Below, in pieces: positions 1,196-17,589 of a stretch of 64,000 nucleotides of DNA. The stretch is from Candidatus Eiseniibacteriota bacterium (lineage in GTDB: Bacteria > Eisenbacteria > RBG-16-71-46). How positions within the stretch are numbered: position 1 is the first letter of the stretch; the number at the start of each line of letters is the position of its first letter. Under the pieces are notes generated by a model. It did not search any database and had not been told where the DNA came from. It was given only the letters and a program-made list of their open reading frames with translations. The translations under genes and the position numbers were made by a program. The stretch is from contig OY970178.1 in NCBI GenBank assembly GCA_963707915.1, positions 3,104,001 through 3,168,000 on the forward strand. The letters run 5' to 3'.

Positions 1196-2143
1196 CTAGA
1201 ACTTGTGGTGGCAGCCGACGTTGAAGCAGCCTCGAAGCGACTCGCTCAGGAACAGGCGGCTGGTGTAGGAGCCGTGGATGTCCGTGTGGCAGTCATTGCA
1301 GGGCATGCCCGCCCATCTCGTCCCGTGCATCGGGTTCGAGTTGTGCCGCGGGACCGAGTGGCACTGCGTGCACAGCTGGAAGTGGGGCGCCTCGTAGGGC
1401 TGCTTGAGCATCCGCGGCAGGTTCGAGCCGTGGGGCTCGTGGCAGGTCACGCAGCCGCCCTCCTCCGTCGAGTAGTCGAGGGTCGCCGGGTGCTCGTAGG
1501 GGAACGGCCCCTCGAACTCGGCATGGCACTTCATGCAGACGTTCGTGCCGTTGGTCGCCAGCTGGCGGCGCGTGGCGTCGAGGGTCAGGTGACACTCGCT
1601 GCACTTGACGATGCCGTCGTTCACCGGGTGCCGGTACGACCGGGAGAACTGCCCTTCGACGTCCTTGTGGCAGCCCAGGCACAGGCCGCTCTCGGCCTGC
1701 TTGAGCAGCGCCGGGTGCTTCGACGCGTGGACACTGTGGCACGTGCTGCAGTTGAGGTCGTTCGCCGCGTGGGCGTTCTTCTCGAGCATGTTCTGCTGGT
1801 GCGCGTTCTGGTGGCACCCCGAGCACACGCGCGCCTCGGCCGCCGCGCCGCTCTTCGAGGGGTTGGCCATCGGGTACTGGGCCGGGTCCTCGTCCCAGTG
1901 GCGGCTGTCGCCGGCATGGCAGTCCGTGCAGGCGACGCGCGCCGTCGGACCGTCCAGCCCGCCGGCCGGCATCCGGTGCCCGGTGGTGGCGAGGGTCAGG
2001 TCCTGGCCGGTGTGGCAGGCGAGGCACGCCTGGCTGACGCGGGGCTTGCCCTGCGCCGCGGGAGCGCCATTCGCCACGGCGAACGACGCGACCAGCACGA
2101 CGCAGGCGATCAGCATCGAGGACGCGGATCGGCATGAAGTCAT
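1196..2143 (-). CDS. MtrA/DmsE-family periplasmic decaheme cytochrome c
   Basis: Signal peptide; 10 CxxCH motifs; family-like motifs GPFPYEH...CVTCHEPHGS and CNDCHTDIHGS; extra C-terminal CX4CH (CFNVGCH). Start could be 2143 or 2116. Confidence 0.85.
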   Translation of the reverse strand: MTSCRSASSMLIACVVLVASFAVANGAPAAQGKPRVSQACLACHTGQDLTLATTGHRMPAGGLDGPTARVACTDCHAGDSRHWDEDPAQYPMANPSKSGAAAEARVCSGCHQNAHQQNMLEKNAHAANDLNCSTCHSVHASKHPALLKQAESGLCLGCHKDVEGQFSRSYRHPVNDGIVKCSECHLTLDATRRQLATNGTNVCMKCHAEFEGPFPYEHPATLDYSTEEGGCVTCHEPHGSNLPRMLKQPYEAPHFQLCTQCHSVPRHNSNPMHGTRWAGMPCNDCHTDIHGSYTSRLFLSESLRGCFNVGCHHKF

Positions 2144-2587
2144 GTGGGGCGTTGGCAACGCGACTCCTTCCGAGAGTGGGTCCGGAATGCGACTTCCGTA
2201 TCGCTGCGTCGTGAGCGGCACCAGGTGGCGGCCCGACCGGTTGATGGGGCGCGTGATGGCGGCTCGCGGCCGAAAGGCATTCGCGTCGGGCTCGGAGGTG
2301 GAGACGTCCGGAGCTTGTCAGGCCCGCTTCCGCAATGCCGTGTTCGTGATCGTGGATCGAGCGCCATCCCTGCGCGCATGACGTGCACTATAGCGCAGAA
2401 CGAAAGCGAAGTCTCCGTAGTAATACCGACCCACCTATCATCGCCCCGCCCCGGGGAATCTTGAGCGATATCGGCGTCCGCATGACGCTTCCGTCGATTC
2501 GGCCGCGCGGTCAAGTTGCGTCCGGCTAAACACGGTGGCGTCGATGGATTCCGCAATGGTGGCCTCATCCGCCCGAGGGGCGGGCCG

Positions 2588-3634
2588 TCAGCTGCCCGTG
2601 GTGTCGGGCGGCGTCGTGTCCTGCGGCAGGGCGAGCACCTGGAGCCGGCCGAGCGCGCGCTCGGTGATGGCGACGAGCCCCCGGCCGTCGGTCACGAACG
2701 AGGTCGGGTAGGAGACCTCGCCGGGAGCCGTGCCCTCGCCCGTGGCCAGGGTGAGGAAGCCGCCGGCGTGGTCGAAGACCTGCACGCTCTGGCGGATCTC
2801 GTCGCACACCCAGATGCGGCCGTCCCGCGTGCCCAGCACCCCCGACGGCAGCGAGATGTTGCCCGGCCCCATCTCGTGCGTCGCGAAGCCGCGCAGGTAG
2901 GCGCCCTCGCCGGTGAACACCTGCACGCCGAGGTCCGTGCGCGCGCAGGTCACCGCCAGCGTGCTGTCCGGCATGACGGCCAGCGCGGTCACGCTGTGCA
3001 GGCGGCCCGGGCCGCTCCCGGGCTCGCCCCAGGAGCCGGCGCGGGAGTAGTCGGCGGCGAAGCGGTGGATCCGGGAGCCCTCTCCGGAACTGGCCACGTA
3101 GATGGTGCCGTCGGGGCCGACGGCGAGGGCGATCGGCCGCTCGCCGGGAAGGTCCAGGCGCCGCAGCGGGCGGCCGCGACGGTCGAGGACGTCCACGTAC
3201 GACGCCGAGTTGTCCGCCACGAGCAGGCGCCCCGCGCGGTCGAAGGCCAGCGCGCAGGGCTCGCCGTCCACCAGCCCGCCGTCGGGACCGGCGACCCGGT
3301 GGACGAACCAGGTGAGGGCGCGCCCGGTCTTCGAGAAGACCTCGATCCGGTGGGCGCCGGTGTTGGCGACGTAGATCGCCCCGTCGAGCGGATCGAACGC
3401 CGCCCCGCGCGGCCGGCTCAGGTTGGTGCCGTCCGCGTAACCCCAGATGACCAGCCTAGGGGTGAGCAGGCGCGGGGCCGCGGCGACCGCGGCCAGCGCG
3501 CACGCGAGCAGCGCGGCCGCCAGCCCCGGGGCGAAGACGTGGCGCCGGACCCGTGCGCTGCGGAGCACCGCGCCCGCTCGGAGGCCGGGCTTCGCCCGGG
3601 CCCCCGGCTTCTCCTCGAGCGTCGCACGCGTCAC
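2588..3634 (-). CDS. NHL-repeat beta-propeller protein with N-terminal membrane anchor/signal
   Basis: Repeated NHL motifs (PRGAAFDP..GAIYVANTGAHRIEVF; PCALAFDRAGRLLVADN; PSGV..DGRIWVCDE..QSVQVFD); GTG start with GAAAGGTG RBS. Confidence 0.8.
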   Translation of the reverse strand: MTRATLEEKPGARAKPGLRAGAVLRSARVRRHVFAPGLAAALLACALAAVAAAPRLLTPRLVIWGYADGTNLSRPRGAAFDPLDGAIYVANTGAHRIEVFSKTGRALTWFVHRVAGPDGGLVDGEPCALAFDRAGRLLVADNSASYVDVLDRRGRPLRRLDLPGERPIALAVGPDGTIYVASSGEGSRIHRFAADYSRAGSWGEPGSGPGRLHSVTALAVMPDSTLAVTCARTDLGVQVFTGEGAYLRGFATHEMGPGNISLPSGVLGTRDGRIWVCDEIRQSVQVFDHAGGFLTLATGEGTAPGEVSYPTSFVTDGRGLVAITERALGRLQVLALPQDTTPPDTTGS

Positions 3635-3998
3635 GGGGCACGCACCTTTCTGCGGTCGGGCTGGCCCGGGCTCGCCGCCGGGGCGAGGCGGCACGGGGAT
3701 CGAGTCCCTTCGGGTCCGCCCATCGGCGCAGACACTACGGTCAGCCTCGCCCGCTGGCAACGCACGCCCCGCGGCGCCACCCGCGGCCGGGCGTTGACGC
3801 GCCTCGACCCCGGCCCCTATGTTGCCGCCGGCCGCGCGGCGGCCCGCAGGGTGCCGGCCCGGGCGGCCGCACGGAGACCACGCCATGACCAGGAACGGGG
3901 CGGTCCATGACCCGCAGGGCGGCAATCCGAGGGGAGCTCGGGACGTGGCCATCGCCGAGCGCGAGCCGGTCCGGCGCGGCGGCGGGCGGGATCACCTG

Positions 3999-5594
3999 AT
4001 GCCTCGCCGGGCGTCCGTGCTGGTCGCGCTCCTGGCGCTCGCGGTCTACCTGCCCCTCTGCCCGCCGGTGTCGGGGGTCGGGGACGGGAGCGAGTTCACC
4101 CTGGTGCTCGCCACGAACGGGGTCGCCCACCCCACCGGCTACCCCCTGTACGTCCTGCTGGGGCACCTGTTCTGCGTGCTCCTGCACGCGCTGGGCGTGT
4201 CCTGGCCGCTGGCTGCCAACGCCTGGAGCGCGGTCGGGGCCGCGGTGGCCATCGGCTTCCTGCACGCGCTCGGAACGGAGCTCGTCCGGCTCGCCACGCC
4301 GGGCCTGGCGGGGACCGCCCGCTTCGTCGCGGCGCTCGTGCCGGCGGCCCTGATCGCGTTCCAGCCCATCCTGCTGGGAGTGGCGACGTCGGCCGAGGTG
4401 AACAGCTGGAGCCTGGCCTGGGTCTGTGCGGCGGCCTGGGCCTTCCTGCGGCTGTCGGCCGCGGTGGCGCGCGACGGGGGCCCCGAGCCCTCGCCCGGCC
4501 GTGCGGCCGCCCTCTGGGGGCTGGTCTGCGGCCTCGGGTTGGCGCACCACCTCACCTCCGTGGTGGTGGCGCTGCCGCTCTCGGCGGGCCTGGTCGTGCT
4601 GCTCGCCCGGCGGCGGCGTCTTGGGCCCGGTCTGCTGTTCCGGGCCGCCGCGGCGGCGCTGGTCCCGCTCGCGAGCTACGGGATCATCGCCTGGCGCGCC
4701 TGGCACCCGGCCCGGGTGCAGTGGCCGGCGCTGGTCCCGGGAGCGGCCTCGGTGCTCGAGCACATCAGCGGAGCGCAGTACCGCCACTTCCTCGGCTACT
4801 TCGACCCGGCCGCCGACCACCGCGCGTTGCTGGCGCGCGCGGGCTATCCATTCCTCGTCCCGGGGTTGGCGCTGCTCCTGCTCGGTGTCCTGCGCGAGCG
4901 GCGGCCGGAGCGGCGGGTGGCGTGGGCGGCGCTCCTGGCCGCCGCGCTGTCGTCGGCCCTCTTCGCCTTCCGCTACGGGGTTCCCGACCCGGCGCCGTAC
5001 TTCCTGCCGGCGATGGCGCTGGGCGCGGCCGCGGCCGCGCCCACGGTGGCGAGCCTGGCGGGCGGGGCCGGGCGCGAGCGGGCGCTTCGCCTGGGCGTGA
5101 TGGGTCTGGCCGCGCTCGCCCTGGTCGTCCCCTGGATCCGCGGCGGGCTGGCGGAGCGCCGCGGACTGATCGAGAACGAGGCCATGCTCCGCTCGATGTG
5201 GTCCGCCGTGCCGTCGGACACGGCCATCGTCCTGTGGCCCGACGACCGCTTCATCCACCTGGTCGAGTACCAGATCCTGCGCGGCGAGAAGCCCGCGCTG
5301 TGGATCGCCACGCCGGACATGCTGCTGGAGGCCGCCACGCGCGCCGAGCTGCGGGGGCGCTTCGGGACCGACCCGCTCGAGGGGGTGCGCGTTCCCACGG
5401 TTCGCCCCGGCTTGCCGGACGAGGCGGCGACCATCCAGCGGTCGCTCGCCGCCATCGTCAGGAACCTGAACGCCCGCACGCGCGTCCCGGTGATCTGGTT
5501 CGACCCGGGCGTGCCCGAGGTGCGGCAGTTGCGCAAGCCCTGGGAGCCGGTGGAAGGCTCCGGCGCGCGTCCCGCCACGCTCCTGTCGCCGTAG
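3999..5594 (+). CDS. DUF2723/TMEM260-like membrane glycosyltransferase (GT-C fold)
   Basis: GDGSEF...GVAHPTGYPLYVLLGHLF and TSAEVNS motifs, many TM helices. Alternative starts at 3885 and 3945. Confidence 0.75.
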   Translation: MPRRASVLVALLALAVYLPLCPPVSGVGDGSEFTLVLATNGVAHPTGYPLYVLLGHLFCVLLHALGVSWPLAANAWSAVGAAVAIGFLHALGTELVRLATPGLAGTARFVAALVPAALIAFQPILLGVATSAEVNSWSLAWVCAAAWAFLRLSAAVARDGGPEPSPGRAAALWGLVCGLGLAHHLTSVVVALPLSAGLVVLLARRRRLGPGLLFRAAAAALVPLASYGIIAWRAWHPARVQWPALVPGAASVLEHISGAQYRHFLGYFDPAADHRALLARAGYPFLVPGLALLLLGVLRERRPERRVAWAALLAAALSSALFAFRYGVPDPAPYFLPAMALGAAAAAPTVASLAGGAGRERALRLGVMGLAALALVVPWIRGGLAERRGLIENEAMLRSMWSAVPSDTAIVLWPDDRFIHLVEYQILRGEKPALWIATPDMLLEAATRAELRGRFGTDPLEGVRVPTVRPGLPDEAATIQRSLAAIVRNLNARTRVPVIWFDPGVPEVRQLRKPWEPVEGSGARPATLLSP

Positions 5595-5657: not shown

Positions 5658-8600
5658 TCAGTCGCGCTTCGGCCCCATGGAGGGGTCGTGGCACTGGATG
5701 CACAGCTCCCGGGTCGGCTCGTGCGTCAGCAGGGAAGGCTGGTCGCTCGAGTGGGGCAGGTGGCAGCCGACGCAGTCGAGCGGCTCGTTGGTGCGCGGGT
5801 CCACGCCTCCCGAGACCTTGTGGAAGTGCTTGGACGTGTCCGAGTGGCACTGCCGGCACAGCGTGTCCACGTCCTCGGTGAGCAGCTTCTTGTGCTTCCC
5901 GCTGTGGGGATCGTGGCACGTCGCGCAGCCCTGCCCGAGCGCGGCGTGCACGTTCTTCCGGCGGAACGGGCGGGGATCGTGGCACTGGAAGCAGAGCTTC
6001 TCGCCCGCGCGCTTCAGCACGCCGGTCGCCATGCCCGCGTGCGCTCCGTGGCAGGAAAGGCAGGCCTCGCGCGACTGCAGCGGCGCGTGGACGACGGGCG
6101 CGGAGAGCCACGCTTTCTGCCCCTCGTGGCAGCGGAAGCACAGGTCGGGCACCGGCTGAGTCGTCGCCCCGGTCTTGCGCTCGCCATGACACTCGACGCA
6201 CCTGCGCTGCGCGAAGGGCATGTGCGAGACGGGCTTGAGCATGCCGGGCCGGCCCGTCGCTCCGACGTGCGGATCGTGGCAGTCCACGCAGTTGGCCTTC
6301 GCGAGGGCGAAGCCCTGGTGCTTCGCCAGGAGCCCCTGCTTCTCGATCGAGTGGCAGGCGGTGCAGAGCGCGGCCCCCTGGCGCTTCGTCATGCCGGGCT
6401 CGTCGGTGCCGTGGCTCGCGTGGCAGGTCGAGCAGAGCCCCATGGCGACCGGCGCGTGGGGCTTGCCCTGCGCGATGCGGGTCTGCAGGTCCGCGTGGCA
6501 GGTGAAGCACAGCGCGCCGGTGCGCTGCTTCAGCAGCGCCGGGTTGGCGCTCTCGTGCGGCTCGTGGCAGGTCGCGCACTGGCCCGCGGCCGCGGGCGGG
6601 TGCCCGTGCTTGAGCCGGGCGTCGGCGACGGCCCCGGCATGGCACCGGACGCACAGCCGGATGGGCTGGGTGACCAGCAGCGCCGCGCGGTCGGAGGCGT
6701 GCGGCGTGTGGCAGGCGACGCAATCGCCCTTCGCGACCGGCGGATGCACGTGGCCGGCGGCCGCGCCCTGCGGTGTGGCCTTCTTCTTCGGGATCTGGTG
6801 GCACGAGGCGCACAGCGTGGCCGCCGGGCGCGCCAGGTTCAGGGCCCCGGGCGCGCCGGTCTTCCCGTGGCACTTGGTGCACTCCTTCGACCCGAAGAAC
6901 GGGTGTTCGCGGGCCGCCAGCAGGCCGGCCGACTTGGACGCGTGCGGGGTGTGGCACGAGAGGCAGTCGACCGCGGTCAGCGTGGCGCCGCCGTGTTTCC
7001 GGGTGAGGTCCGCGTCCTCCAGGTCGTGGCAGTCGCCGCACAGCGCGGGCACCTTCTTCGTCAGGGCGGGCGCCGCCACGCCGCCGTGGGGATCGTGGCA
7101 GGAGAGGCACTCGCCGCTCTCCACCGGGGGATGCACGGTGTCCCCTTCCTTGCCGATGCCGCCGTGGCACCGGGTGCACAGGGCGTTGGGCTCGTCGCGC
7201 AGCAGGGCCGCCCGCGACCCGCCGTGGGGCTCGTGGCAGGCCGCGCACTGCCCGGCCGCGGCCGGGGTGTGGGGTGCGGGGCCCTTGATCTTCGCGGCGA
7301 TGTCGGCGTGGCACTTGGTGCAGAGGGTGGCCCCGCCGGTCGCGAGCAGGCGGTTGGTGAGCCCGCCGTGGGCGCCGTGGCACTCGAGGCACTGCCCGGC
7401 GGCTGCCGGCGCGTGCGGATGGGACGCCTTGGCCGCCATCACCTCCTGGCCGTGGCAGGGCGCGCAGATCTTCGCCGGCTCGCCGCGCAGCAGCTTGCCC
7501 TGGCCCGACTGGTGCGGGTCGTGGCAGGCGGTGCACTGGCCGGAGCGGAACGGCGGGTGCACCTCGAGGCCGACGAGCTTCTGCGCCAGGTCGGCGTGGC
7601 AGGTCCGGCAGAGCGCGCGCATGTCCTTGCGCAGGAGCCGCTCCTCGGCCGCCGAGTGGGGGGCGTGACAGCGCAGGCAGTCCTTCTTCGCGAACGGCGG
7701 GTGCGTCCCGGCGCTGTCGGCGCGGGCCCCGAGGTCCTTGTGGCAGTCGAGGCACATCGCGCCGTCGGCGGTCTTCAGGAGGTGCTCGCGGTCGGATCCG
7801 TGCGGCTGGTGGCAGCCGGCGCAGTCGCCGGCCGCGAACGCCTTGTGGACCACCGGCTGCTTCAGCGCTTCGGCGAGCTGGTCGTGGCACTGGCCGCAGA
7901 GTTCCAGCGGCTTCGACTTGAGCAGGCCCCGGGCGACCCCGCGGTGCGGGTCGTGGCAGGTGAGGCACTCGCCGCCCGCCGCCGGCGGGTGGGGCGTGGG
8001 TTTCTGGGACGCGGTCCGCACGTCGTCGTGGCAGGTGAAGCACAGCTCCGGCACCTCGGTGACGAGCTTCGCGCCCGCCTTGCCGTCCTCCATCGTGTGG
8101 CAGGCGTCGCAGCTGCCCTCGGCCGCGGGCGCGTGCGCGGTCTCGCGCCGGAGCGCGGTCTCGGTCGAGGCGTGCGGGTCGTGGCAGTCGAGGCAGGCCA
8201 GCCCGGCGACCGTGAGCTTCGCGTGCGCGGTGGCCGTGTCGGCGGGCTTGTGGCACGTCGCGCAGAGCTGGTCGGCCGGGCCGCGGAGCAGCCCGGCGTC
8301 CTTCGAACCGTGGGCGTCGTGGCACGCGTAGCAGTCGCCCCGGGCAAAGACCGCGTGCACGTGCGGCTTCTTCGCCTGGGCCGCGGCCTCCTCGTGACAG
8401 GGGAAGCAGGTGGCTTGCGGGCCCCCGGCGCGCAGCAGCCGCGGCTGGTCGGAGGCGTGCGGATCGTGGCAGGAGAGGCACTTGCCCTGTTCGTAGGCGG
8501 CGTGCGCGTGCTCGGGCTTCGCGGCCGTCTTCAGGGCGTCATGGCAGCCGAAGCACAGCTCCGGCGCCGGCTTCACCAGGATCAGCTTCTGCAGGAAGCC

Positions 8601-8819
8601 GTGGCTCTTGTGGCAGGCCGCGCAGTCCACCTTCGCGACCGGCGCGTGAACGAACTTCCTCGACCCGTAGTCCTGCTTCGCGTCCTTGTGGCAGTCGTAG
8701 CAGGGACGGCCCTTCGGCACCGGCTTCGCGGCGTCGACGTGTCCGGGCAGCAGCAGCGGGACGGCGCCGAGCAGTGCTGCCGCGAACAGCGCGCGCAGGA
8801 GACGGGCGGGGCGGCTCAT
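5658..8819 (-). CDS. Giant multiheme cytochrome c, 42 CxxCH motifs in paired (doubled) CxxCH repeats
   Basis: Counted 42 CxxCH motifs in 1053 aa; repeat unit H-x-P-x(4-5)-CxxCHxxH-x~15-LCxxCH; N-terminal signal peptide. Confidence 0.92.
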   Translation of the reverse strand: MSRPARLLRALFAAALLGAVPLLLPGHVDAAKPVPKGRPCYDCHKDAKQDYGSRKFVHAPVAKVDCAACHKSHGFLQKLILVKPAPELCFGCHDALKTAAKPEHAHAAYEQGKCLSCHDPHASDQPRLLRAGGPQATCFPCHEEAAAQAKKPHVHAVFARGDCYACHDAHGSKDAGLLRGPADQLCATCHKPADTATAHAKLTVAGLACLDCHDPHASTETALRRETAHAPAAEGSCDACHTMEDGKAGAKLVTEVPELCFTCHDDVRTASQKPTPHPPAAGGECLTCHDPHRGVARGLLKSKPLELCGQCHDQLAEALKQPVVHKAFAAGDCAGCHQPHGSDREHLLKTADGAMCLDCHKDLGARADSAGTHPPFAKKDCLRCHAPHSAAEERLLRKDMRALCRTCHADLAQKLVGLEVHPPFRSGQCTACHDPHQSGQGKLLRGEPAKICAPCHGQEVMAAKASHPHAPAAAGQCLECHGAHGGLTNRLLATGGATLCTKCHADIAAKIKGPAPHTPAAAGQCAACHEPHGGSRAALLRDEPNALCTRCHGGIGKEGDTVHPPVESGECLSCHDPHGGVAAPALTKKVPALCGDCHDLEDADLTRKHGGATLTAVDCLSCHTPHASKSAGLLAAREHPFFGSKECTKCHGKTGAPGALNLARPAATLCASCHQIPKKKATPQGAAAGHVHPPVAKGDCVACHTPHASDRAALLVTQPIRLCVRCHAGAVADARLKHGHPPAAAGQCATCHEPHESANPALLKQRTGALCFTCHADLQTRIAQGKPHAPVAMGLCSTCHASHGTDEPGMTKRQGAALCTACHSIEKQGLLAKHQGFALAKANCVDCHDPHVGATGRPGMLKPVSHMPFAQRRCVECHGERKTGATTQPVPDLCFRCHEGQKAWLSAPVVHAPLQSREACLSCHGAHAGMATGVLKRAGEKLCFQCHDPRPFRRKNVHAALGQGCATCHDPHSGKHKKLLTEDVDTLCRQCHSDTSKHFHKVSGGVDPRTNEPLDCVGCHLPHSSDQPSLLTHEPTRELCIQCHDPSMGPKRD

Positions 8820-9340
8820 CGCGCGGACACGGTGTCGTGGCCGGCCGGCCGCGTCGGGGGCGCGGTGGGCGGGCTCGCCGGGGCGACGGCCGACGTGTCG
8901 ACCATGATCGGCGCCCGCCCGGTGAACTCGACCTTGACCACCTGGAAGGCGAACATGGACTTGCGCGCGAAGTGGGGCGGCATCTTGAGCAGCGCCCAGG
9001 TCGTGTCCTGCGGCGCCTTCTTCTGGAAGACGATGATGCGGAAGGCGGGGTTGTCGGGCTGGTCGGACTTCGACATGATCTTGCGGGTGGTGAGGTCCAT
9101 GGTGAAGTCGGGCACGTACTCGACCACGCGCGCCGAGAAGTCGGTGTCACCGAGGATGAAGTCCTGCTTCAGCTTCACCCGCTGCAGGTCGCGGAAGTCG
9201 TGGAAGACGCGATGCCGCACCAGCAGCGTCACGGCGTCCAGCCGCGCCCCGCCCGCGGCCGCCGGCGGCTTCACCTGCGCCTGGGACGGGAGGACCGCGA
9301 CGAGTCCGATCAGGAGCCCGAGCCACCACGTGCGTCTCAT
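8816..9340 (-). CDS. Exported protein with a ResB/DUF2155-like PDF..S.S..P.NPA motif
   Basis: Signal peptide MRRTWWLGLLIGLVAVLPSQA; motif VVEYVPDFTMD...SKSDQPDNPAFRI; ATGA overlaps with both neighbours. Confidence 0.6.
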   Translation of the reverse strand: MRRTWWLGLLIGLVAVLPSQAQVKPPAAAGGARLDAVTLLVRHRVFHDFRDLQRVKLKQDFILGDTDFSARVVEYVPDFTMDLTTRKIMSKSDQPDNPAFRIIVFQKKAPQDTTWALLKMPPHFARKSMFAFQVVKVEFTGRAPIMVDTSAVAPASPPTAPPTRPAGHDTVSAR

Positions 9341-9969
9341 CTGGATCCTTCCTTGCGGGGGCCCGGCGCGCGGCGCGCGCCCGCCACCCTGAAGTCGCCG
9401 AGCATGTCCTGGGCGAGCAGCGAGACCAGCCGTTCCGTGCTCATGACCCGTCCCCAGCCGAACAGCGTCTCGTGGTCCTCGCCGGAGCGGAAGTGCACAC
9501 CGGCCCACAGGACCCGGCCGCTCGCGGCCTCGACCAGCCGCAGCGTGCCGCCCACGGCGGGCACGTCCAGGTCGCCGCTGCGCAACCGTCCGCTCTCGAG
9601 CACGCTGCCCATCAGCAGGTAGGGGGCGCGCAGGGCCTCGCCCAGCTCGCGGACCTGCGCCGGCGTGAGCGAGCCGCCCGAACGGATGCCCAGCGAGTCC
9701 ATCGCCTCGTCCACCTGCCCGGGCTCGGCCATCTCGAGGGCGCCGCTGGCGACCAGCTGGGCGAAGAACACCTTGCTGAAGAGCGCGCCCTGCTCCTCGC
9801 GGCCCGCGAGGTTCTCGAACGGCACGAGCGCGGCGCGCGGGTGGTCCGCGGGCACGGTGCCTCCGGCGGAGCGACGCAGGGCCGGTGCGCTCCCGGCGCA
9901 CAGCACCGCCAGGCCGGCGAGGACGGCGAGCCGCAGCCCGATCGCGATGCGCCCGTGACGTCGAGCCAT
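9337..9969 (-). CDS. CsgG/HfaB/PelC-like exported protein
   Basis: ALVPFENLAG...LGEALRAPYLLMGSV...VGGTLRLVEAASGRVLW matches the CsgG/TolB-N/LpoB-like alpha/beta fold pattern. Confidence 0.6.
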   Translation of the reverse strand: MARRHGRIAIGLRLAVLAGLAVLCAGSAPALRRSAGGTVPADHPRAALVPFENLAGREEQGALFSKVFFAQLVASGALEMAEPGQVDEAMDSLGIRSGGSLTPAQVRELGEALRAPYLLMGSVLESGRLRSGDLDVPAVGGTLRLVEAASGRVLWAGVHFRSGEDHETLFGWGRVMSTERLVSLLAQDMLGDFRVAGARRAPGPRKEGSR

Positions 9970-9971
9970 GG

Positions 9972-10562
9972 TCAGAACGCCCTCCCGCGCAGCCGGGCCA
10001 CGAGCTCGTCGCAGGCGTCCTGCGTCAGCCGTCCCAGCGAGCGCGAACTCTGGCCGAGGACCGGGATGCGGCTCTTGCCGCGCTTCGCGATCGAGGACCG
10101 CCAGACCACGTTCCCGGTGTTGGCGTCCAGCAGCTCCGCGTCGAACGACAGGACCGGGATGTCGCCGTTCTCCGTGCGCTGCATGGTGTACTCGCTGACC
10201 GCGCCGCGCAGCACGCCGGTGGCTCCCAGCCGGAGGGCCACCTCCTTGAGCTTCTGCAGGTCATACGTCCCGTCCGTCTCCGGCATGACGTTGTCCTTCA
10301 GCAGGGCGGTGCGGAACTCCTCGGGCTGCACGATCTGGTAGCGGTCCGTCATGATCAGCGAGGTGATGAAGGCGCGCGTGACGCGCGGTCCGGCCAGCCC
10401 CTCGCTGCTCAGGTTGGTGAACGGCAGCACGGCGATCCTGGTGTAGAAGGCCATGTCCGCGTCGGGATTCAGGTAGACCCGGGAGACCGGGGCGCAGGAG
10501 AGCAGGAGCAGGCCCAGGGCGGCGGCCGCCATGCGTGCCAGAGGATGGTGCTTCCCGGCCAT
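9972..10562 (-). CDS. CsgG/HfaB/PelC-like lipoprotein
   Basis: Lipobox LLLSC; RIAVLPFTNLS...LGATGVLRGAVSEY...LLDANTGNVVWR; GGAGG RBS; paralog of the neighbouring gene. Confidence 0.7.
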   Translation of the reverse strand: MAGKHHPLARMAAAALGLLLLSCAPVSRVYLNPDADMAFYTRIAVLPFTNLSSEGLAGPRVTRAFITSLIMTDRYQIVQPEEFRTALLKDNVMPETDGTYDLQKLKEVALRLGATGVLRGAVSEYTMQRTENGDIPVLSFDAELLDANTGNVVWRSSIAKRGKSRIPVLGQSSRSLGRLTQDACDELVARLRGRAF

Positions 10563-10563
10563 G

Positions 10564-12213
10564 CTACCTCCAGAGACTCTGGGACAAGGTCGCGCTCACC
10601 TGCCGGGCGCGGGTGGGAAGACCCGGGTCCGCCTGAGTGTAGCGAATCGTGGCGTGCAGGTCGCGGTTCAATGCCACGGCGAGCCAGGCGCCGTAGGCCT
10701 CACGGCCGGCCGTGAGCGACGTGCCGGGGTCGCGCAGTTGCTGGTTCGCGCGGGTGTAGGTGCCGCTCGCCTGGACGGTGCGCGAGGGGGTCCACTGCAC
10801 GCTGGCCTGCAGCGTCGAGCGGTCGGGCGCGTTGCGCACGAAGCCCCCGGCGCGGCCCCAGCTGCCGCTCGCCTGCAGCTTCTCCGAGGCCCGCCAGTCG
10901 AGGCTCGTCGTGTAGGTGGTCGAGGCCGGGCCGTCGCCCCGCAGCGTCGCGCCGGTGCGGTAGCGCCGCAGGTTCGCATTGAGGGTGACGGTGCGCAGCG
11001 GCACCGCGCGCAGGCCGGCGGCGGTCTGCAGCGTCACCAGGGTCGCGGCCGGGCCGGTTTCGAGGCCCGCGCTGGGGCGGTCGGCCCTGGAGAGCGAGGC
11101 CTCGCCGAAGGCGTCGAACCCCTTCGAGAGCCGCATCCGCGTGTTCGAGCGGATGCTCTGGACCGGGCGGGCGCGGTCGCCGGGGAGCCAGTTCCACGAC
11201 TGGTTCGCGCTCGCTCCCAACCTCCACCCGGGCCGGGCGTCGCCCTCGGCCGAGGCCGACGTGCTCAGGAAGCTCTCGGTCTCCTCGCTGCCCGCGACGT
11301 TGACGCTGCGCACTCCGCCGCCGCCGGACAACTGCACCGCCTTCCAGGGCCGGTGGATGACGCTGAGTGAGCCGTCGTGATCGACCTCGGTCGTGGTGGC
11401 GAACTGCGTGGTGCCCACGCTCCGGAAGCTGTAGGCGAGACTGGCAGAGGTCCGCTTGGAGATCGCCAGCCCCCCGTTCGCGGACGCGCTGTGCACGCGC
11501 GAGGTGGCGTCATGGGCCCCGTCGACCTGCCTGCGCGACTGGTTGTAGTCGTACTGGAGGACGGCATTCGCACGCCGGTTCTCGAGGCGCACGGTCGAGC
11601 CGGCGTTGACGTTCTCCTCGCTCCCGGTCCGCCGCCGCGCGCTGCGGTCCTCGTTGGCCAGGTCGCCGTAGCCCGCGTGGAGGTTCAGCCGCCCCAGGTC
11701 GTAGTTGGCCATCAGGCTGCGCCTCACGGCCGCTGTGCCCGGGAACGGGCCGCTCGCATCCTGGTTGCGACGGTTCCACGAGGCCGACAGCTGGGGAAGC
11801 CCGGCCCGCTGGAAGTAGCCCGTCAGGTTGGTCTCCTGCTGGCGGGTCGTGAGGTTGCGCGAATCGACGACCGTGATCGGCCGGTAGGAGCCGAACAGCC
11901 CGAACAGCGGATGGGCCAGGCGCAGGGAGCCCTGCGGGAGGATCTGGCGGTCGGGTCGTCCGATGGTGCGCTGGTCGGTGAACTGGAACCGGGACGAGAG
12001 CTCGTAGGCCTTGCGGAAGCGGCGGGAGTAGTCGAGTTGCACGGAGGTGAGCCACCATTCCACGTCGTTGGCCGGGTCCAGCAGGCTGAGCTTCGAGTAT
12101 TGCACCTCGGCGACTCCCCGGATCTTCTGCTGGGCGTCAGCGGGCCCGGCGAGCAGAACGGCCGCCATCGATGCCGCCACCAGCCCCGCCCCCAGCGCTC
12201 TTCGCCGCATCAT
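10564..12213 (-). CDS. Outer-membrane beta-barrel protein
   Basis: True start is MMRRRALGAGLVAASMAAVLLAGPADA (signal peptide; ATGA overlap with the upstream cytochrome); about 520 aa of amphipathic beta-strands. Confidence 0.75.
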   Translation of the reverse strand: MMRRRALGAGLVAASMAAVLLAGPADAQQKIRGVAEVQYSKLSLLDPANDVEWWLTSVQLDYSRRFRKAYELSSRFQFTDQRTIGRPDRQILPQGSLRLAHPLFGLFGSYRPITVVDSRNLTTRQQETNLTGYFQRAGLPQLSASWNRRNQDASGPFPGTAAVRRSLMANYDLGRLNLHAGYGDLANEDRSARRRTGSEENVNAGSTVRLENRRANAVLQYDYNQSRRQVDGAHDATSRVHSASANGGLAISKRTSASLAYSFRSVGTTQFATTTEVDHDGSLSVIHRPWKAVQLSGGGGVRSVNVAGSEETESFLSTSASAEGDARPGWRLGASANQSWNWLPGDRARPVQSIRSNTRMRLSKGFDAFGEASLSRADRPSAGLETGPAATLVTLQTAAGLRAVPLRTVTLNANLRRYRTGATLRGDGPASTTYTTSLDWRASEKLQASGSWGRAGGFVRNAPDRSTLQASVQWTPSRTVQASGTYTRANQQLRDPGTSLTAGREAYGAWLAVALNRDLHATIRYTQADPGLPTRARQVSATLSQSLWR

Positions 12214-13613
12214 CGAGCATAGTTGATCGTGTACGACTCGGGATCGTGACACGTCGGCGAGCAGGTGCCGCCGCTGGCCGTCTCGGTGTAGGAGCCGATG
12301 CCCGGGTTGCGCCCCGTGGCGATGAGATGGCGCTGGTCGGGCGAGCCGTGCGTGACGTGGCAGGCGTAACAGGGGACGTGCTCCTCGCCGACGTGCTCGG
12401 CGTGGCCCTTGTCCACCCCGGGCTTGTTGAACCGCGAGAGGGCCCTCGTCGCCTCGGGCGCGCCCGGGTCCGCGTAGACTTCGGGGGTGTGGCAGGCGAA
12501 GCAGATCTCGCCGGTGCTCATCGTCCGCGGCTGGGGCGAGGCGGTGTAGGGCTGCGTCAGGATGTAGCGGTACGAGGAGCCGTGCGGCCCGCGCGTGGAC
12601 CCGACGAAATCGCTGCCGTGGCAATCGCCGCAGCGCGTGAGGCTGGCGGCGCTCCAGCCGGGCGCGAACGCGCCGGCCGGGATCCCCGGGTTGCGGCCCG
12701 CGGCCTCGACCGGGTGGAACGACTCGTTCGCCGGGTTCAGGACCAGGGCCAGGTCGGTCTGCCCCGAGGGCTGGCTGGTCCAGGACGAATGGCACTTGAA
12801 GCAGAGCTGGTATTCCGCCACCGGCGCGCTCAGCGTATCGGAGCCGGCGGCGAACGTGAACGTGGGGGGCGTGCCCGCCGGGCCGTTCTGCACCAGCACC
12901 CGACTCACGCCCAGGTTGGTGCGCGAGAGCCCGGGGGCGGCCGGCGTGGCGGGCCGGTCGGCGCCGGCCACGTGCGGGTTGTGGCAGTCGACGCACTCGG
13001 AGTGGCGCGCGTTCGCGGGCGAGACCCCGAAGTCGGCGGGATCGGATTCGGCCGGTCCCTTGTGGCGCCCGGAGTAGAGCCGCACCGGGTGCCGGTAGAC
13101 CTTGGCGAGATCGGCGCCGATGTTGGTGGAAGCGGGCGCGCCGTCATGGCAGGTGAGGCAGAGAGTCTCCTCGCGCCCGATGGCGAGCGCCGGGATCAGC
13201 CCGCCGGCGTCCGACCAGCCGTGCGGGTCGTGGCAGTTGAGGCACTTGCCCTCCGCGCCCGGCTCGGTGCGTGGCGGGGGGGTGGGCCCCGGCCAGGCGG
13301 TCCCGGTGGCCGTGCCGTGAGAGGCGCCGGAGTACACCCAGGGCCCCGCGTAGCTGCCGGCCGTCCAGGGCTTGTCGTGGCAGCGGTCGCAAAGCGAGTT
13401 GTCGTCCGGGCCGAGCAGCGCGTGCCCGTAGACGACATCCCCCTGGCCGTGCACGGTGTGGCACTGGTCGCAGTCGCCCGCGTGCGCGCCCTGCGCCAGG
13501 AGCTTCTCGACGCCGGCGGGGGTGCGATAGGGATGCAGGGGCTGCGCTCCAGTCGCCAGCAGGCACACCAACGCCAGCCCCGCGAGGCTCGAGACGAGAT
13601 CCCTCGGTCGCAT
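12210..13613 (-). CDS. Multiheme cytochrome c (9 CxxCH + 1 CX3CH)
   Basis: Signal peptide from ATG 13613; CDQCH, CDRCH, CLNCH, CLTCH, CVDCH, CFKCH, CGDCH, CFACH, CYACH and terminal CSPTCH. Confidence 0.88.
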   Translation of the reverse strand: MRPRDLVSSLAGLALVCLLATGAQPLHPYRTPAGVEKLLAQGAHAGDCDQCHTVHGQGDVVYGHALLGPDDNSLCDRCHDKPWTAGSYAGPWVYSGASHGTATGTAWPGPTPPPRTEPGAEGKCLNCHDPHGWSDAGGLIPALAIGREETLCLTCHDGAPASTNIGADLAKVYRHPVRLYSGRHKGPAESDPADFGVSPANARHSECVDCHNPHVAGADRPATPAAPGLSRTNLGVSRVLVQNGPAGTPPTFTFAAGSDTLSAPVAEYQLCFKCHSSWTSQPSGQTDLALVLNPANESFHPVEAAGRNPGIPAGAFAPGWSAASLTRCGDCHGSDFVGSTRGPHGSSYRYILTQPYTASPQPRTMSTGEICFACHTPEVYADPGAPEATRALSRFNKPGVDKGHAEHVGEEHVPCYACHVTHGSPDQRHLIATGRNPGIGSYTETASGGTCSPTCHDPESYTINYAR

Positions 13614-13692
13614 GCTGCCCAGATTAGCCCAGCGCGTCGAAAACCTCACGCTGCCCACCCGTCCCGGCCTGGAAGTGGATGCCCGATGGACA

Positions 13693-13725
13693 TCCGGCCG
13701 ACTCCGGGATGCGGAGCCGGCCGGA
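13693..13725 (-). terminator. Strong intergenic hairpin after the omcS-like gene (mRNA stabiliser or partial terminator)
   Basis: Minus strand TCCGGCCGGCTCCG-CATCC-CGGAGTCGGCCGGA, 14-bp stem with one G-U pair; no clear U-tract. Confidence 0.5.
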
Positions 13726-13746
13726 CCTTGCCCGATGTTGCGAGGC

Positions 13747-14820
13747 TCAGGGGATGATCGCGACCGGGTTGCCGGCCGGGAAGCTGCCCTGGGTGTGGCA
13801 CTGACGGCACAGGTCGCGGTACTCGCCGCCGTCACCCTGCTCGGTGATGTCGGTCGGGGTTGCGGGCGTGTTGGGACCGGTCGTGGTGTTGTCCACGAAC
13901 CAGATCAGCCCGAAGCCGTTCTGGTTGCCGTGCGACTTGTGGCAGGTGAAGCACGACGGGGTCGCGGTGGCGGTCGAACCGTCCCACTGGCCCAGCCCGT
14001 CCATCAGCTTGACCTTGTGCGTGTGCAGGTTCAGCTGGGTGCGGTTGCTGGTGCTGAGGTCCACGCCGGCCGTCGGGTGACGGACCACGCCGTCGACGGT
14101 CTCGATGTTGGCGTCCGCCGGTGAGCCGTGGAAGGTCGTGTGGCAGGCCTGGCACCATGCGCCGTAGGCGCTCGTGGTCTGGCTCGGCTCCTGGTAGTTG
14201 ACGTTGTTCCAGCCGTAGCCGCGCGCGGCCGCCTCGTAGACGTCCTTCGTGTTGGTGGGCGTCCCGCCGATCTCGTAGGAGACGAACCGGTTGTAGAAGG
14301 CGTTGGTGCTGCGCGTGCTGCTCTTCAGGTTGCGGTAGTTCGCCGCGCCGTGCGCGGAGTGGCAGTCCGCACAACCCAGGCCGCTCGCGCTCACGGGCGA
14401 AGTCGTGCCGCTGAAGCCCGGCGGCGTGGCGGTCGACCACAGCGTGTGGCCGTCACCGACGGAGTAGCCGGCGTCGTTCGTGTAGCCGTGGCCCGACTCG
14501 ACGTTCAGCGCACCGGCGAGGCGGCCGTTCAGCGGGGCCGCGCTCGTGGTGCCGAGCACGTCCGGAACGTCCGTGCGACCGTCGTGGCACGAGAGGCACA
14601 CCGCGTTGACCGACGACTGGCGCAGCAGCTTCGCGAACGGAGCGCCGGCGCCCGGAGGATTCAGCTCGCCGGTCTCGGGGTAGGTGTGCGACTGCTGGCC
14701 GTGCATCACGTGGCAATCGCTGCAGACCAGCAACTGGCCGACGTGATAGTCGCCCGACAACGCGACGGTCGTGAGACCGGCGAGGGCCAGGACGACGAGG
14801 GAGAGCAACAGGCGCTTCAT
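13747..14820 (-). CDS. OmcS-like hexaheme cytochrome c (candidate nanowire subunit)
   Basis: Six CxxCH motifs in OmcS-like context: YHVG....CSDCHVMH; LL......CLSCH; GH...PPG; LGCADCHSAHG..YRNL; WCQACH..FH...RHP; CFTCHKSH; RDLCRQCH. GAGGAG RBS. Confidence 0.8.
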   Translation of the reverse strand: MKRLLLSLVVLALAGLTTVALSGDYHVGQLLVCSDCHVMHGQQSHTYPETGELNPPGAGAPFAKLLRQSSVNAVCLSCHDGRTDVPDVLGTTSAAPLNGRLAGALNVESGHGYTNDAGYSVGDGHTLWSTATPPGFSGTTSPVSASGLGCADCHSAHGAANYRNLKSSTRSTNAFYNRFVSYEIGGTPTNTKDVYEAAARGYGWNNVNYQEPSQTTSAYGAWCQACHTTFHGSPADANIETVDGVVRHPTAGVDLSTSNRTQLNLHTHKVKLMDGLGQWDGSTATATPSCFTCHKSHGNQNGFGLIWFVDNTTTGPNTPATPTDITEQGDGGEYRDLCRQCHTQGSFPAGNPVAIIP

Positions 14821-15378
14821 GAGTTTGCTCCTCGTGGTGGTGGGGGATGCTTCGGGTTCGAATCTTCAGGAGTCGGGTCTGAAGGTAACGAGCGAGTTGC
14901 GCTGACCCCCCTTTCGAACCCGGGAGTGGGAACGAGTGCTGGTCCAGCGGCGTTTCGCAGGACCGTGCTCGATTCGAACGGACCTTCCTGAGCCTTCGGA
15001 TCGGGCGGGAGGCGGGAGGCGTTCTGCCTCCCTCCGTCACCCTGCGTCTCGACCACGAGTGACTCAGGACGTTGAGACGGGAACGATGATACGGTAATGT
15101 GAACTGCGCGTCTAGGTGAAAGTACTGATGCGAGGTCCGCAGTCCACCTGTGGTCTGGTGTTCTAAAGTACCATGTGCCATCTAGATACGTAGACTAATG
15201 GCTATCAACGACATGAGTCCGCTTCTGGGAACGGATGGTCCTTACCGGCGCTTGCCGAATCAACTGGAGTCTGAAATCCTCCGTCGACTAGGCCATTTCC
15301 CGCTCTTGTGTTCCATAAAGAAACGATTGGTTGGATGGTCTTCCGCCCGTCGAGTGACCCATAATTCCGAGGGAAGTC

Positions 15379-17589
15379 GTGAATCTTGGTGACCTGCTGC
15401 TGAAGCTCGCATTCCTGCTCGCGGTCCCGGCCGCCTTCCTCTTCTTCCAGGACGTCCGGGGCCGCCGCGGGCCCGCAGCGGCTGAATGGATGTTCGGGCT
15501 CCACTCGGCCGCCATCCTCGGCGCGGTCGTCACGCTCTGGGCGCTCTTCCTCGGCCACCGCTTCGAGTACGCCTACATCGCCGAGTACAGTTCCCGCGCC
15601 CTCTCGCCCGCGCTCACCTTTGCGGCCTCCTGGGCCGGGCAGGAGGGCAGCATCCTGCTCTGGGCACTGCTCATGGCGCTGGTGGGCGTCGCCCTGATGC
15701 GGCAGCCGGGGCCGCTCTCCCGGCCGGCGATGTTCTTCGTCGCGCTCGCCCAGCTCGGCCTGCTGGTGCTGCTCCTGGTGCGCAGTCCGTTCCGCGTGAG
15801 CCACGTCACCCCGGCGGACGGCCAGGGCCTGAACCCGCTGCTCGAGGATCCCTGGATGGTCGTCCATCCGCCGGTGCTCTTCGTGGGGTACGCGGCGATG
15901 GTGGCCCCCTTCGCCCTGGCGGGCGCCGCGCTGGTGCTCGGTCTGTGGCGCGAATGGAACCGCGCCGTTTGGCCCTGGGTGCTGTTCGCGGTGCTCTCGC
16001 TCGGAACCGGCATCGCCCTCGGCGGCATCTGGGCCTACAAGGTGCTGGGCTGGGGCGGCTACTGGGGCTGGGACCCGGTCGAGAACGCCTCGCTCGTGCC
16101 CTGGCTCGTCGCGGTCGCGCTCCTGCACGGCCTGTTCATCCAGAAGACCACCGGTGGGCTGGTGCGCAGCAACCTGCTCATGGCGTTCCTGGGATGGCTC
16201 ACCGTGCTCGGCGGGACCTACCTGACCCGCAGCGGCGTGCTGCAGGACTTCTCGGTCCACTCCTTCGCCGACTCGGGCCTCAACGTGCCGCTGATCGTCA
16301 ACCTGGCCGGCGCCCTGCTGATCGCGGCCGTGCTGCTGGCCTGGCGCTGGCGCGCGATCGAGTCGAGGCCCACCCGCTGGACCAGCGTCTCGCGCGAGGC
16401 CGCGCTGTGGGTCGGGCTCGTCACGGTGCTGGTCTTCGCGGCCATGGTGACCTTCGGCACGATCGCTCCGCTGCTCACCTCGCTGGCCGGCCGGCCCGCC
16501 AGCGTGCGCCCGTCGTTCTACCAGTCGATGAGCGTGCCGCTCGGCGTCCTGCTGGTGCTGGTCATGGCGGTCGCGCCGGCGCTGCGCTGGTCGCGGCAGG
16601 TGGGGTTCGGCTGGCTCACGGCGCTCGCCCCGGGGTTCCTGTGCGCGCTGCTGGCGTTCGGGGGCGCGCTCCTCACGGGCGTGCGGGACGGGGCGCACCT
16701 GGCGCTGCTCGCCACGACCGGGTTCGCCCTCGGGATCAACGCGTGGATGACCGTGAAGCTGTTCCGCCGCGGCTGGAGCTACGGCGCGGGCTACCTCGGG
16801 CACGCGGGGCTCGCCATCATGATCCTGGGGATGGTGATGTCCACGGCGCTGGGACGCACCGAGCGCCTGACGCTGCGGACGGGCGAATCGGGGCAGGCCC
16901 TCGGCTACACGATCACCTACCGCGGAGACCATTTCGATCCGCGCGGTGGCCACCAGCTCGACGTGCTGGTGAGCCGCAAGGGCTGGAGCTTCGAGGCCCG
17001 CCCGCAGCTGCTGAAGATGCCGCAGGGCGAGGGCAGCATGCACAAGCCGGCCATCAGCGGCCGGCGCGAGCTCTACCTGTCGCCAGTGGACGTGCAGCGG
17101 CTGGAGAGCGACGCGGACCGGATCGTGTGGCTGCCGCAGGGCCAGGCGGTGCCGGCGCTGGGACTGACCTGGACCTTCGTGGGGTTCCGGATGGAGTCGC
17201 ACGAGGCCATGCAGGTCCTGGCCGACATCGATGTCCGCCGGAGCGGGCCGGCGGTGCGGATCTCCCCCGGGATGCGCGCCGACGCGCAGGGGACCCGGGC
17301 GCTGCCGGTCGAGGTGGCCGGCCTGGGGCAGGTCACGGTCGAACGGATCGACGCGGATCGCAAGCGGGTGGGTGTGCTGCTCCCGGGTGCCGGGGCGGCG
17401 AGCCAGGCGGTGCTGGAGTTCAGCACCAAGCCGCTGGTCAACCTGGTCTGGGTGGGCGCGCTCATCACCCTGCTCGGGGCCGCGCTGGCCGGCCTGCGCC
17501 GTGCCATCGAGGTCGTGCCTGGCGCGCGACGCCGGCGGGCCGCCGCCGCTCCGGCCGCTCCAGCCGTCCCGACCGGCGGGGCCCGGTAA
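15379..17589 (+). CDS. ccmF: Cytochrome c heme lyase, CcmF/NrfE family
   Basis: WAGQEGSILLW, GLNPLL, HPPVLFVGY, WWD motif WAYKVLGWGGYWGWDPVENASLVPW, TRSGV..SVHSF, C-terminal KPLVNLVWVG. Confidence 0.9.
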   Translation: MNLGDLLLKLAFLLAVPAAFLFFQDVRGRRGPAAAEWMFGLHSAAILGAVVTLWALFLGHRFEYAYIAEYSSRALSPALTFAASWAGQEGSILLWALLMALVGVALMRQPGPLSRPAMFFVALAQLGLLVLLLVRSPFRVSHVTPADGQGLNPLLEDPWMVVHPPVLFVGYAAMVAPFALAGAALVLGLWREWNRAVWPWVLFAVLSLGTGIALGGIWAYKVLGWGGYWGWDPVENASLVPWLVAVALLHGLFIQKTTGGLVRSNLLMAFLGWLTVLGGTYLTRSGVLQDFSVHSFADSGLNVPLIVNLAGALLIAAVLLAWRWRAIESRPTRWTSVSREAALWVGLVTVLVFAAMVTFGTIAPLLTSLAGRPASVRPSFYQSMSVPLGVLLVLVMAVAPALRWSRQVGFGWLTALAPGFLCALLAFGGALLTGVRDGAHLALLATTGFALGINAWMTVKLFRRGWSYGAGYLGHAGLAIMILGMVMSTALGRTERLTLRTGESGQALGYTITYRGDHFDPRGGHQLDVLVSRKGWSFEARPQLLKMPQGEGSMHKPAISGRRELYLSPVDVQRLESDADRIVWLPQGQAVPALGLTWTFVGFRMESHEAMQVLADIDVRRSGPAVRISPGMRADAQGTRALPVEVAGLGQVTVERIDADRKRVGVLLPGAGAASQAVLEFSTKPLVNLVWVGALITLLGAALAGLRRAIEVVPGARRRRAAAAPAAPAVPTGGAR

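Follow-up and report, generated by a model that had tools for sequence, protein, structure and literature searches.

The hexaheme cytochrome gene and its relationship to OmcS

The window analyzed here is a stretch of 64,000 nucleotides from contig OY970178.1 of a Candidatus Eiseniibacteriota bacterium. On its minus strand, at positions 13747..14820, lies a gene for an OmcS-type hexaheme c-type cytochrome, which we call the hexaheme. OmcS itself (GSU2504; PDB 6EF8 and 6NEF) is a cytochrome of Geobacter sulfurreducens whose filaments have been demonstrated. An initial annotation of the window had proposed that the hexaheme is a compact, OmcS-like subunit that polymerizes into nanowires, and had called for its alignment to OmcS. 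The open reading frame (ORF) runs from an ATG at 14820-14818 to a TGA at 13749-13747 and encodes a precursor of 357 amino acids, of which about 335 would remain in the mature protein. The plus-strand frame across 13747-14820 is broken by a stop.

The protein has exactly six CxxCH motifs, which start at C33, C75, C150, C223, C290 and C338, and a motif scan of all 357 residues found no CxxxCH or CxxxxCH motif. In total there are 12 cysteines and 17 histidines. The heme 1 motif, C33-S-D-C-H37 (14710..14724, minus strand, as are all of the following elements of the gene), is preceded by H26 (codon at 14743-14745), which lies seven residues upstream just as H2 does in OmcS. The remaining motifs are C75-L-S-C-H79 for heme 2 (14584..14598); C150-A-D-C-H154 for heme 3, with H157 following (14359..14373); C223-Q-A-C-H227 for heme 4, followed by H231 and by R247-H248-P249 (14140..14154); C290-F-T-C-H294 for heme 5, followed by H297 (13939..13953); and C338-R-Q-C-H342 for heme 6 (13795..13809). 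By homology with OmcS, heme 5 is the putative acceptor of a histidine, H40, from the next subunit. The H40 codon is located at 14701..14703, and the residue is aligned with OmcS His16 in the HMMER alignments.

Residues 1-22 (14755..14820) have the characteristics of a Sec-type signal peptide, with a hydrophobic N-terminus that is helical in the first AlphaFold2 model. We infer that cleavage occurs after an A-x-A-like site, just before G23-D24-Y25-H26. Among 33 aligned relatives, the pattern A-x-A followed by G-D-Y-H is conserved at the predicted cleavage site, and G-D-[YF]-H directly after the signal peptide is fixed in all 33, with G23 invariant and D24 at least 90% conserved. This suggests that the mature protein begins with G23-D24-Y25, two residues ahead of the position that was originally numbered 1.

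At its other end, the protein extends 15 residues past the last CxxCH motif (13750..13794). This clade-specific tail, TQGSFPAGNPVAIIP, conforms to the pattern G-[ST]-[FW]-P-x-G-N-P-T-N-I-x-P, and the predicted local distance difference test (pLDDT) values of the structural model fall to 66-76 in this region. At least 10 residues follow the last motif in 37 of 141 relatives, and an NP..I.P-like end is found in 17 of the 141. Most other hexaheme relatives stop 2-6 residues past the last motif. As a motif, the NP..I.P-type tail could act in sorting or in contacts.

The requested alignment to OmcS yields a full-length profile match in which the six CxxCH motifs are colinear. A family profile built from 33 sequences matches residues 1-405 of the 407 residues of OmcS in one stretch with an E value of 3.9e-8, with a sizeable HMMER bias term. 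When the profile is built from 141 sequences, the same span is matched, again in one stretch, with an E value of 7e-24 and 87.6 bits. The runner-up matches of this profile among PDB sequences are far weaker, namely 9yuq_N (E 3.7e-6) and the tetraheme cytochrome OmcE (E 1.5e-5). The former, chain N of PDB entry 9yuq, is a 218-residue protein described as a 'putative multiheme cytochrome c' of which 16 chains were deposited. This entry, which outranks OmcE in the profile search, may be another filament structure.

At the N-terminus, HMMER pairs residues 1-19 of OmcS chain 6ef8_A, FHSGGVAECEGCHTMHNSL, with Y25..Q43 of the hexaheme column for column and with high posterior. Thus, the OmcS N-terminal string given in the initial annotation agrees with the sequence of 6ef8_A, and the string that it had quoted for the hexaheme (Y25-H-V-G-Q-L-L-V-C-S-D-C-H-V-M-H40) is present in the translation of the ORF. 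The two proteins also have the same register, as had been claimed, with H2/C9/C12/H13/M15/H16 of OmcS facing H26/C33/C36/H37/M39/H40. Likewise, the downstream heme contexts that had been listed as shared, which are YR.L, WCxxCH..H..RHP and R.LCxxCH, do match OmcS in the HMMER alignments. Heme 3 is bound in a CH..HG context followed by YR in both proteins, and heme 4 by WCxxCH...H followed by RHP, with a spacing from H to RHP of 16 residues here versus 10 in OmcS. The CH..H of heme 5 and the R.LCxxCH of heme 6 face their OmcS counterparts. The remarks that the protein is shorter than OmcS (335 mature residues versus 407) and has an extra C-terminal tail hold as well, with the qualification that the tail is clade-specific.

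A structural model of the monomer, predicted from 141 sequences with the signal peptide removed, has a mean pLDDT of 93.0 and a predicted template modeling score of 0.90, with 286 of 335 residues at or above a pLDDT of 90. A Foldseek search of the full PDB with this model returned OmcS with an E value of 1.3e-7 and a probability of 1.00, and no other match below an E value of 1. The OmcS fold is therefore present in the predicted monomer.

It could be argued that the hexaheme is a generic multiheme cytochrome whose likeness to OmcS stems from CxxCH motifs and composition alone. Indeed, a single-sequence phmmer search of PDB sequences does not return OmcS at E values up to 10, so that the homology is visible at the profile level only. 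Pfam and NCBIfam assign the protein to generic families (Paired_CXXCH_1, cytochrome c7 and a doubled CXXCH domain), and the bias term of the smaller profile points in the same direction. However, the larger profile match is full-length and colinear, and the two proteins have seven non-motif histidines as well as the RHP and R.LC contexts in common. A chance resemblance of CxxCH motifs is in effect refuted by this profile match and by the Foldseek match to OmcS, and we consider a generic cytochrome extremely improbable. Because the profile match is joined by a predicted fold that also matches OmcS, membership of the hexaheme in the OmcS family is well supported, and we hold it with high confidence.

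Ligand histidines and a paralog without the candidate donor

We counted histidine conservation in the 141-sequence alignment, using precursor numbering. Exactly six CxxCH motifs are present in all 141 relatives, and H37 of the heme 1 motif is a histidine in every one. Outside the motifs, H26, H125, H157 and H297 are each conserved in 141 of 141 sequences, H248 in 140, H40 in 139, H231 in 134 and H45 in 124. Position 39 is not constant in the family (M in 103 of 141 sequences and A in 23). In the HMMER alignments, H26, H40, H125, H157, H231 and H297 each align directly with a histidine of OmcS. H248 of the R-H-P sequence is a few columns out of register with the RHP of OmcS, and these two residues were equated by eye.

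His16 of OmcS, reported as the inter-subunit ligand donor to heme 5, corresponds to H40. In support of the initial annotation, a histidine is found at this position in 139 of the 141 relatives. According to Filman et al. 2019 (PMC6584659), all 12 axial ligands in OmcS are histidines, of which 11 come from the same subunit and one, that of heme 505, comes from the neighboring subunit. The hexaheme family has seven conserved non-motif histidines, which is at least the six needed for bis-histidine ligation of all hemes. Since there are seven such residues for six distal roles, one of them would not be a ligand. With an OmcS fold, hemes 1 and 5 would lie at opposite ends of the subunit, judging from the architecture of OmcS (PMC6584659), and H40 should then be unable to reach heme 5 of its own chain. 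The fixed mature N-terminus, G-D-[YF]-H, is comparable to the F-H of OmcS and fits a role for this region at a subunit interface.

A search of the 3.62-Mb single-contig genome with the family profile uncovered one other OmcS-like gene. This stand-alone paralog, P0269, is located at about 1453.5-1454.9 kb of the contig (G000:C1; L081:1090-2439, minus strand) and is flanked by unrelated housekeeping-type ORFs. It has six CxxCH motifs, is 27% identical to the hexaheme, and ends in a C-terminal tail of about 45 residues that is rich in glycine, alanine and proline. The counterparts of H26, H125, H157, H248 and H297 are kept, and the positions of H40 and H231 are occupied by G and S, respectively. 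P0269 has six hemes and yet a glycine in place of H40, which shows that the fold does not by itself bring the donor histidine along. Given that this residue can be lost, its retention in 139 of 141 hexaheme relatives suggests that it is under selection.

The wider paralog family, with 203 matches at E values up to 1e-3 among 8000 candidates, has a profile that is further from OmcS (E 2.2e-5). The donor histidine is present in 26 of 32 sampled members, all 26 of which have seven CxxCH motifs. It has been lost in the other six, five of which have six motifs and one of which (P0280) has seven. These six may form a single clade, and the losses would then represent one or two evolutionary events rather than six.

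Since P0269 keeps the heme 5 pocket but has lost the donor histidine, it could accept a subunit without being able to donate to one. One might therefore imagine a donor/acceptor pair, in which the cluster-encoded subunit, having both H40 and the acceptor heme 5, extends the chain, and the paralog is dedicated to capping or anchoring the filament and so fixes the point at which the wire starts. We consider this scheme quite improbable. If it were true, wire nucleation would be genetically encoded in these bacteria, and the 335-residue subunit together with a seven-gene helper set would constitute a minimal natural cytochrome-nanowire system.

The gene cluster and its distribution

The hexaheme gene is followed on the minus strand by several genes for secreted proteins. 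Directly downstream is gene B (12210..13613), which codes for a secreted 10-heme cytochrome with nine CxxCH motifs and one CxxxxCH motif. Gene C (10564..12213) codes for a 549-residue, secreted and cysteine-free protein that is a putative outer-membrane beta-barrel. No Pfam or NCBIfam match was found for gene C. Its neighbors in the ESM Atlas are unnamed clusters from Eisenbacteria and Acidobacteria as well as OMP_b-brl/porin clusters at a score of 0.94, and we regard the barrel assignment as a lead. Next come paralogous genes for two lipoproteins (9972-10562 and 9337-9969), which have lipobox-like N-termini and weak matches to the LpoB family (E 9e-6 and 2.4e-3). Gene D (8816..9334) encodes a small secreted protein of 172 amino acids with no Pfam or NCBIfam family match. 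Gene E (5658..8819) encodes a 1053-residue cytochrome with 42 CxxCH motifs. An NHL-repeat beta-propeller gene (2588..3952, minus strand; Pfam NHL, E 2.3e-14) is displaced compared to its position in relatives. In the opposite direction, upstream of the hexaheme, a divergent CcmF-like cytochrome c maturation gene occupies 15379..17589 on the plus strand (Pfam Cytochrom_C_asm, E 1e-28; CcmF_C, E 2e-23).

Two other genes deserve mention. On the opposite strand, where the cluster ends (3819..5594), is a gene for a TMEM260-like O-mannosyltransferase of proteins (Pfam E 5e-17), and it occupies the same place in two related loci, L002 and L003, at 59-60% identity. The encoded enzyme may glycosylate a product of the cluster. 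Near the start of the window, a gene on the minus strand (1196..2221) codes for another secreted cytochrome, with 10 CxxCH motifs and one CxxxxCH motif.

Between the hexaheme gene and gene B, two adjacent GC-rich hairpins are predicted at 13677..13722 on the minus strand. They begin 25 nucleotides past the stop codon, have stems of 11 and 8 base pairs, and are both present in the centroid structure. The hairpins carry no T-run, and no canonical intrinsic terminator was found after the hexaheme gene. The folding z-score of the region is -1.05, which is not significant. Situated where the subunit gene gives way to the accessory genes, the hairpins might possibly act as an attenuator or stabilize the mRNA, a tentative proposal on these data. 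They could reduce how often transcription runs on into the accessory genes, as would be expected for an abundant structural subunit. Upstream of the hexaheme, a sigma-70-like promoter match is located at 15086..15114 (minus strand; 9 of 12 consensus positions, with one site found versus 0.2 expected), and this is a match to the consensus only. For the region 12210-14820, no RNA runs were listed, and the 9 rows returned were all from DNA, with shares of 0.05-0.16.

Relatives of the hexaheme are numerous and are found mostly in metagenome-assembled genomes of Candidatus Eisenbacteria. Of 8000 candidates that were scored from the 90% clusters, 377 match at E values up to 1e-3, and an exhaustive search of 50% cluster representatives gave 1077 matches at E values up to 1e-3, 469 at 1e-10 and 207 at 1e-30. 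A scan of contigs matched 185 stretches, of which 154 were confirmed as relatives, and 79 loci were kept. Of these loci, 34 are labeled Candidatus Eisenbacteria, six Zixibacteria and four Planctomycetota, and the remainder are labeled Acidobacteriota, Gemmatimonadota, Armatimonadetes, Ignavibacteriales, Latescibacterota and other or unclassified groups. The closest relative, in locus L001, is 87% identical. A compact OmcS-fold subunit with an intact inter-subunit histidine is thus common in uncultured phyla of sediment and soil. Since this family goes unnamed in the curated models of Pfam and NCBIfam, surveys of iron cycling probably undercount it.

To assess gene order, the neighbors of the hexaheme in the window were compared with the 79 loci by tblastn at a coverage of at least 0.5. 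Many loci end at contig edges, and the resulting counts are therefore lower bounds. Matches were obtained for the NHL gene in 71 loci, gene B in 57, gene E in 54, gene C in 36, gene D in 18 (49 at any coverage, through a conserved C-terminal part) and the CcmF-like gene in 13. The recurrent order on one strand is NHL, hexaheme, B, C, D and E, and in most relatives the NHL gene ends about 100 base pairs before the hexaheme gene. The locus in the window is best explained as a conserved same-strand cluster that opens with the hexaheme gene, and for this cluster we propose a role in extracellular electron transfer.

The same genes can be arranged into another functional scheme. The hexaheme might have the OmcS fold and yet be monomeric or form a small oligomer, so that it would be the terminal cytochrome on the outer face of a conduit of the porin-cytochrome kind built from B and C, with H40 binding the heme of a partner or serving as no ligand at all. 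A cytochrome gene followed by a barrel gene is the order seen in Mtr and Pcc conduits, and here gene B is directly followed by the gene for the cysteine-free, secreted protein with barrel-like Atlas neighbors. In addition, matches to decaheme models of the DmsE/MtrA type were obtained for B and E, either below the curated cut-off or as repeats. A preprint on Geobacter (10.1101/2025.11.06.686851) also describes OmcS as the only one of four related OmcS-type hexahemes known to polymerize. However, H40 is conserved in 139 of the 141 relatives, the mature N-terminus is fixed, and under the OmcS fold H40 would be out of reach of its own heme 5 (PMC6584659). A conduit role of this kind seems unlikely to us, though far from negligible. 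An identity as an MtrC/OmcA-type outer-face cytochrome was tested separately and rejected.

A candidate nanowire subunit compared with known systems

On a modest balance of probability, we favor the reading in which the hexaheme is a compact OmcS-fold subunit of a nanowire. In this model, the precursor would be exported by Sec and matured by Ccm, with heme attachment taking place in the periplasm. The protein would then cross the outer membrane through a module formed by the barrel and the lipoproteins, and subunits would assemble head-to-tail outside the cell. H40 of one subunit would provide the sixth ligand for heme 5 of its neighbor, and heme 1 would stack on the neighbor's heme 6, such that a continuous and insulated heme chain carries electrons off the cell. 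Electrons might be supplied by B, by E or by both. The export route, the bond from H40 to heme 5 of the next subunit and the formation of filaments are all predictions by homology.

Several observations weigh against this interpretation. Filament formation has been demonstrated for OmcS, whereas for the hexaheme it is predicted. The relationship between the two proteins is distant, with the structural alignment showing 24% identity and OmcS absent from the phmmer matches described above. With seven conserved histidines for six distal roles, the ligand of heme 5 may be intramolecular, in which case H40 would serve another purpose. The donor histidine is also kept in the mostly seven-heme paralog family, and so, although necessary, it is not diagnostic of proteins that form wires. 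Polymerization, as mentioned, is known for just one of the four related Geobacter hexahemes (10.1101/2025.11.06.686851). The synteny is imperfect, as no NHL gene is adjacent to the hexaheme in the window (14821-15378) or in L001, and the NHL gene of the window lies about 10 kb downstream. Finally, a single OmcS-like gene located beside a block of accessory genes occupies the position of OscC rather than that of OmcS.

This last point relates to the osc genes of Geobacter. According to PMC13194489, which cites Shen et al. 2025, the osc operon of G. sulfurreducens codes for the OmcS-like protein OscC, OscD (implicated in morphology), OscE, OscF and OscG (secretion), OscH (folding) and the large cytochromes OscI (GSU2495) and OscJ (GSU2494). 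A gene of the OscC type (GSU2501) is described as present in every Geobacter genome that has the eight-gene block, sometimes as the sole OmcS-type gene (10.1101/2025.11.06.686851). OscC is listed as predicted periplasmic in one table of PMC13194489. The hexaheme, set alongside OscC by description and gene position, is likewise an OmcS-related hexaheme beside an accessory block.

The hexaheme might accordingly be a functional counterpart of OscC, perhaps residing in the periplasm, and supply electrons to, prime or anchor a wire that consists of a different protein. Its place as the sole OmcS-like gene, directly adjoining the accessory genes, and the listed location of OscC (PMC13194489) are both consistent with this view. 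However, the cluster holds no other candidate wire subunit, and the only other OmcS-like gene found in the genome with the family profile is the stand-alone paralog that lacks the donor histidine. Moreover, GSU2501 itself may form an uncharacterized nanowire, as raised in the preprint (10.1101/2025.11.06.686851). We judge this OscC-like function to be rather improbable.

Demonstrations of cytochrome nanowires are limited, to our knowledge, to a few cultured organisms. If the hexaheme polymerizes, long-range extracellular electron transfer would be a trait of the phyla that carry it, and a protein of 335 residues would give the engineering of conductive filaments a more compact scaffold.

OmcS is one of the closest known counterparts of the hexaheme. 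Both carry six CxxCH motifs, identically ordered, and share the register H-x6-C-x2-C-H-x-M-H, a Sec signal peptide, and a first ligand histidine that is nearly at the mature N-terminus. The hexaheme differs in being about 72 residues shorter as a result of shorter loops, in its two extra N-terminal residues (G-D) and 15-residue C-terminal tail, and in its host, an uncultured bacterium of the Eisenbacteria type instead of a Geobacter species. Homologs of OmcS found by BLAST have been reported from Geobacter, Geoalkalibacter and Anaeromyxobacter (PMC10954620).

Another OmcS-like extracellular cytochrome, DA_402 from Desulfurivibrio alkaliphilus, comes from a cultured member of the Desulfobacterota and is induced more than 100-fold on iron oxide (PMC12545173). 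It has seven heme motifs versus the six of the hexaheme, and in this regard it resembles the paralogous family of relatives of this genome. OmcE (GSU0618) is a tetraheme protein that also forms a filament with an insulated heme chain, and its similarity to the family profile is weak. The gene clusters of OmcE-type nanowires carry an outer-membrane beta-barrel of large size and a beta-propeller lipoprotein, according to PMC13712944, and the hexaheme cluster similarly includes putative barrel and beta-propeller genes.

Our literature search found no printed report of the compact hexaheme family, and the phylogeny or supplements of Shen et al. 2025 may cover it. In the literature that pairs Eisenbacteria with OmcS, we found Eisenbacteria only listed among taxa carrying iron-cycling genes. 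Among the ORFs scanned in 1-21,274, there was no Pfam match of the kind expected for an OscH-type peptidyl-prolyl isomerase or for OscD, and no search aimed at these proteins was made.

As in osc-type loci, the window places an OmcS-type gene beside a putative barrel, lipoproteins and a very large multiheme cytochrome, within a conserved block. The cluster resembles a stripped-down version of the Geobacter osc genes that accompany omcS. Both OmcS-like wires beyond Geobacter and the osc assembly genes have already been published, and the hexaheme adds to these a distant and compact member from uncultured phyla.

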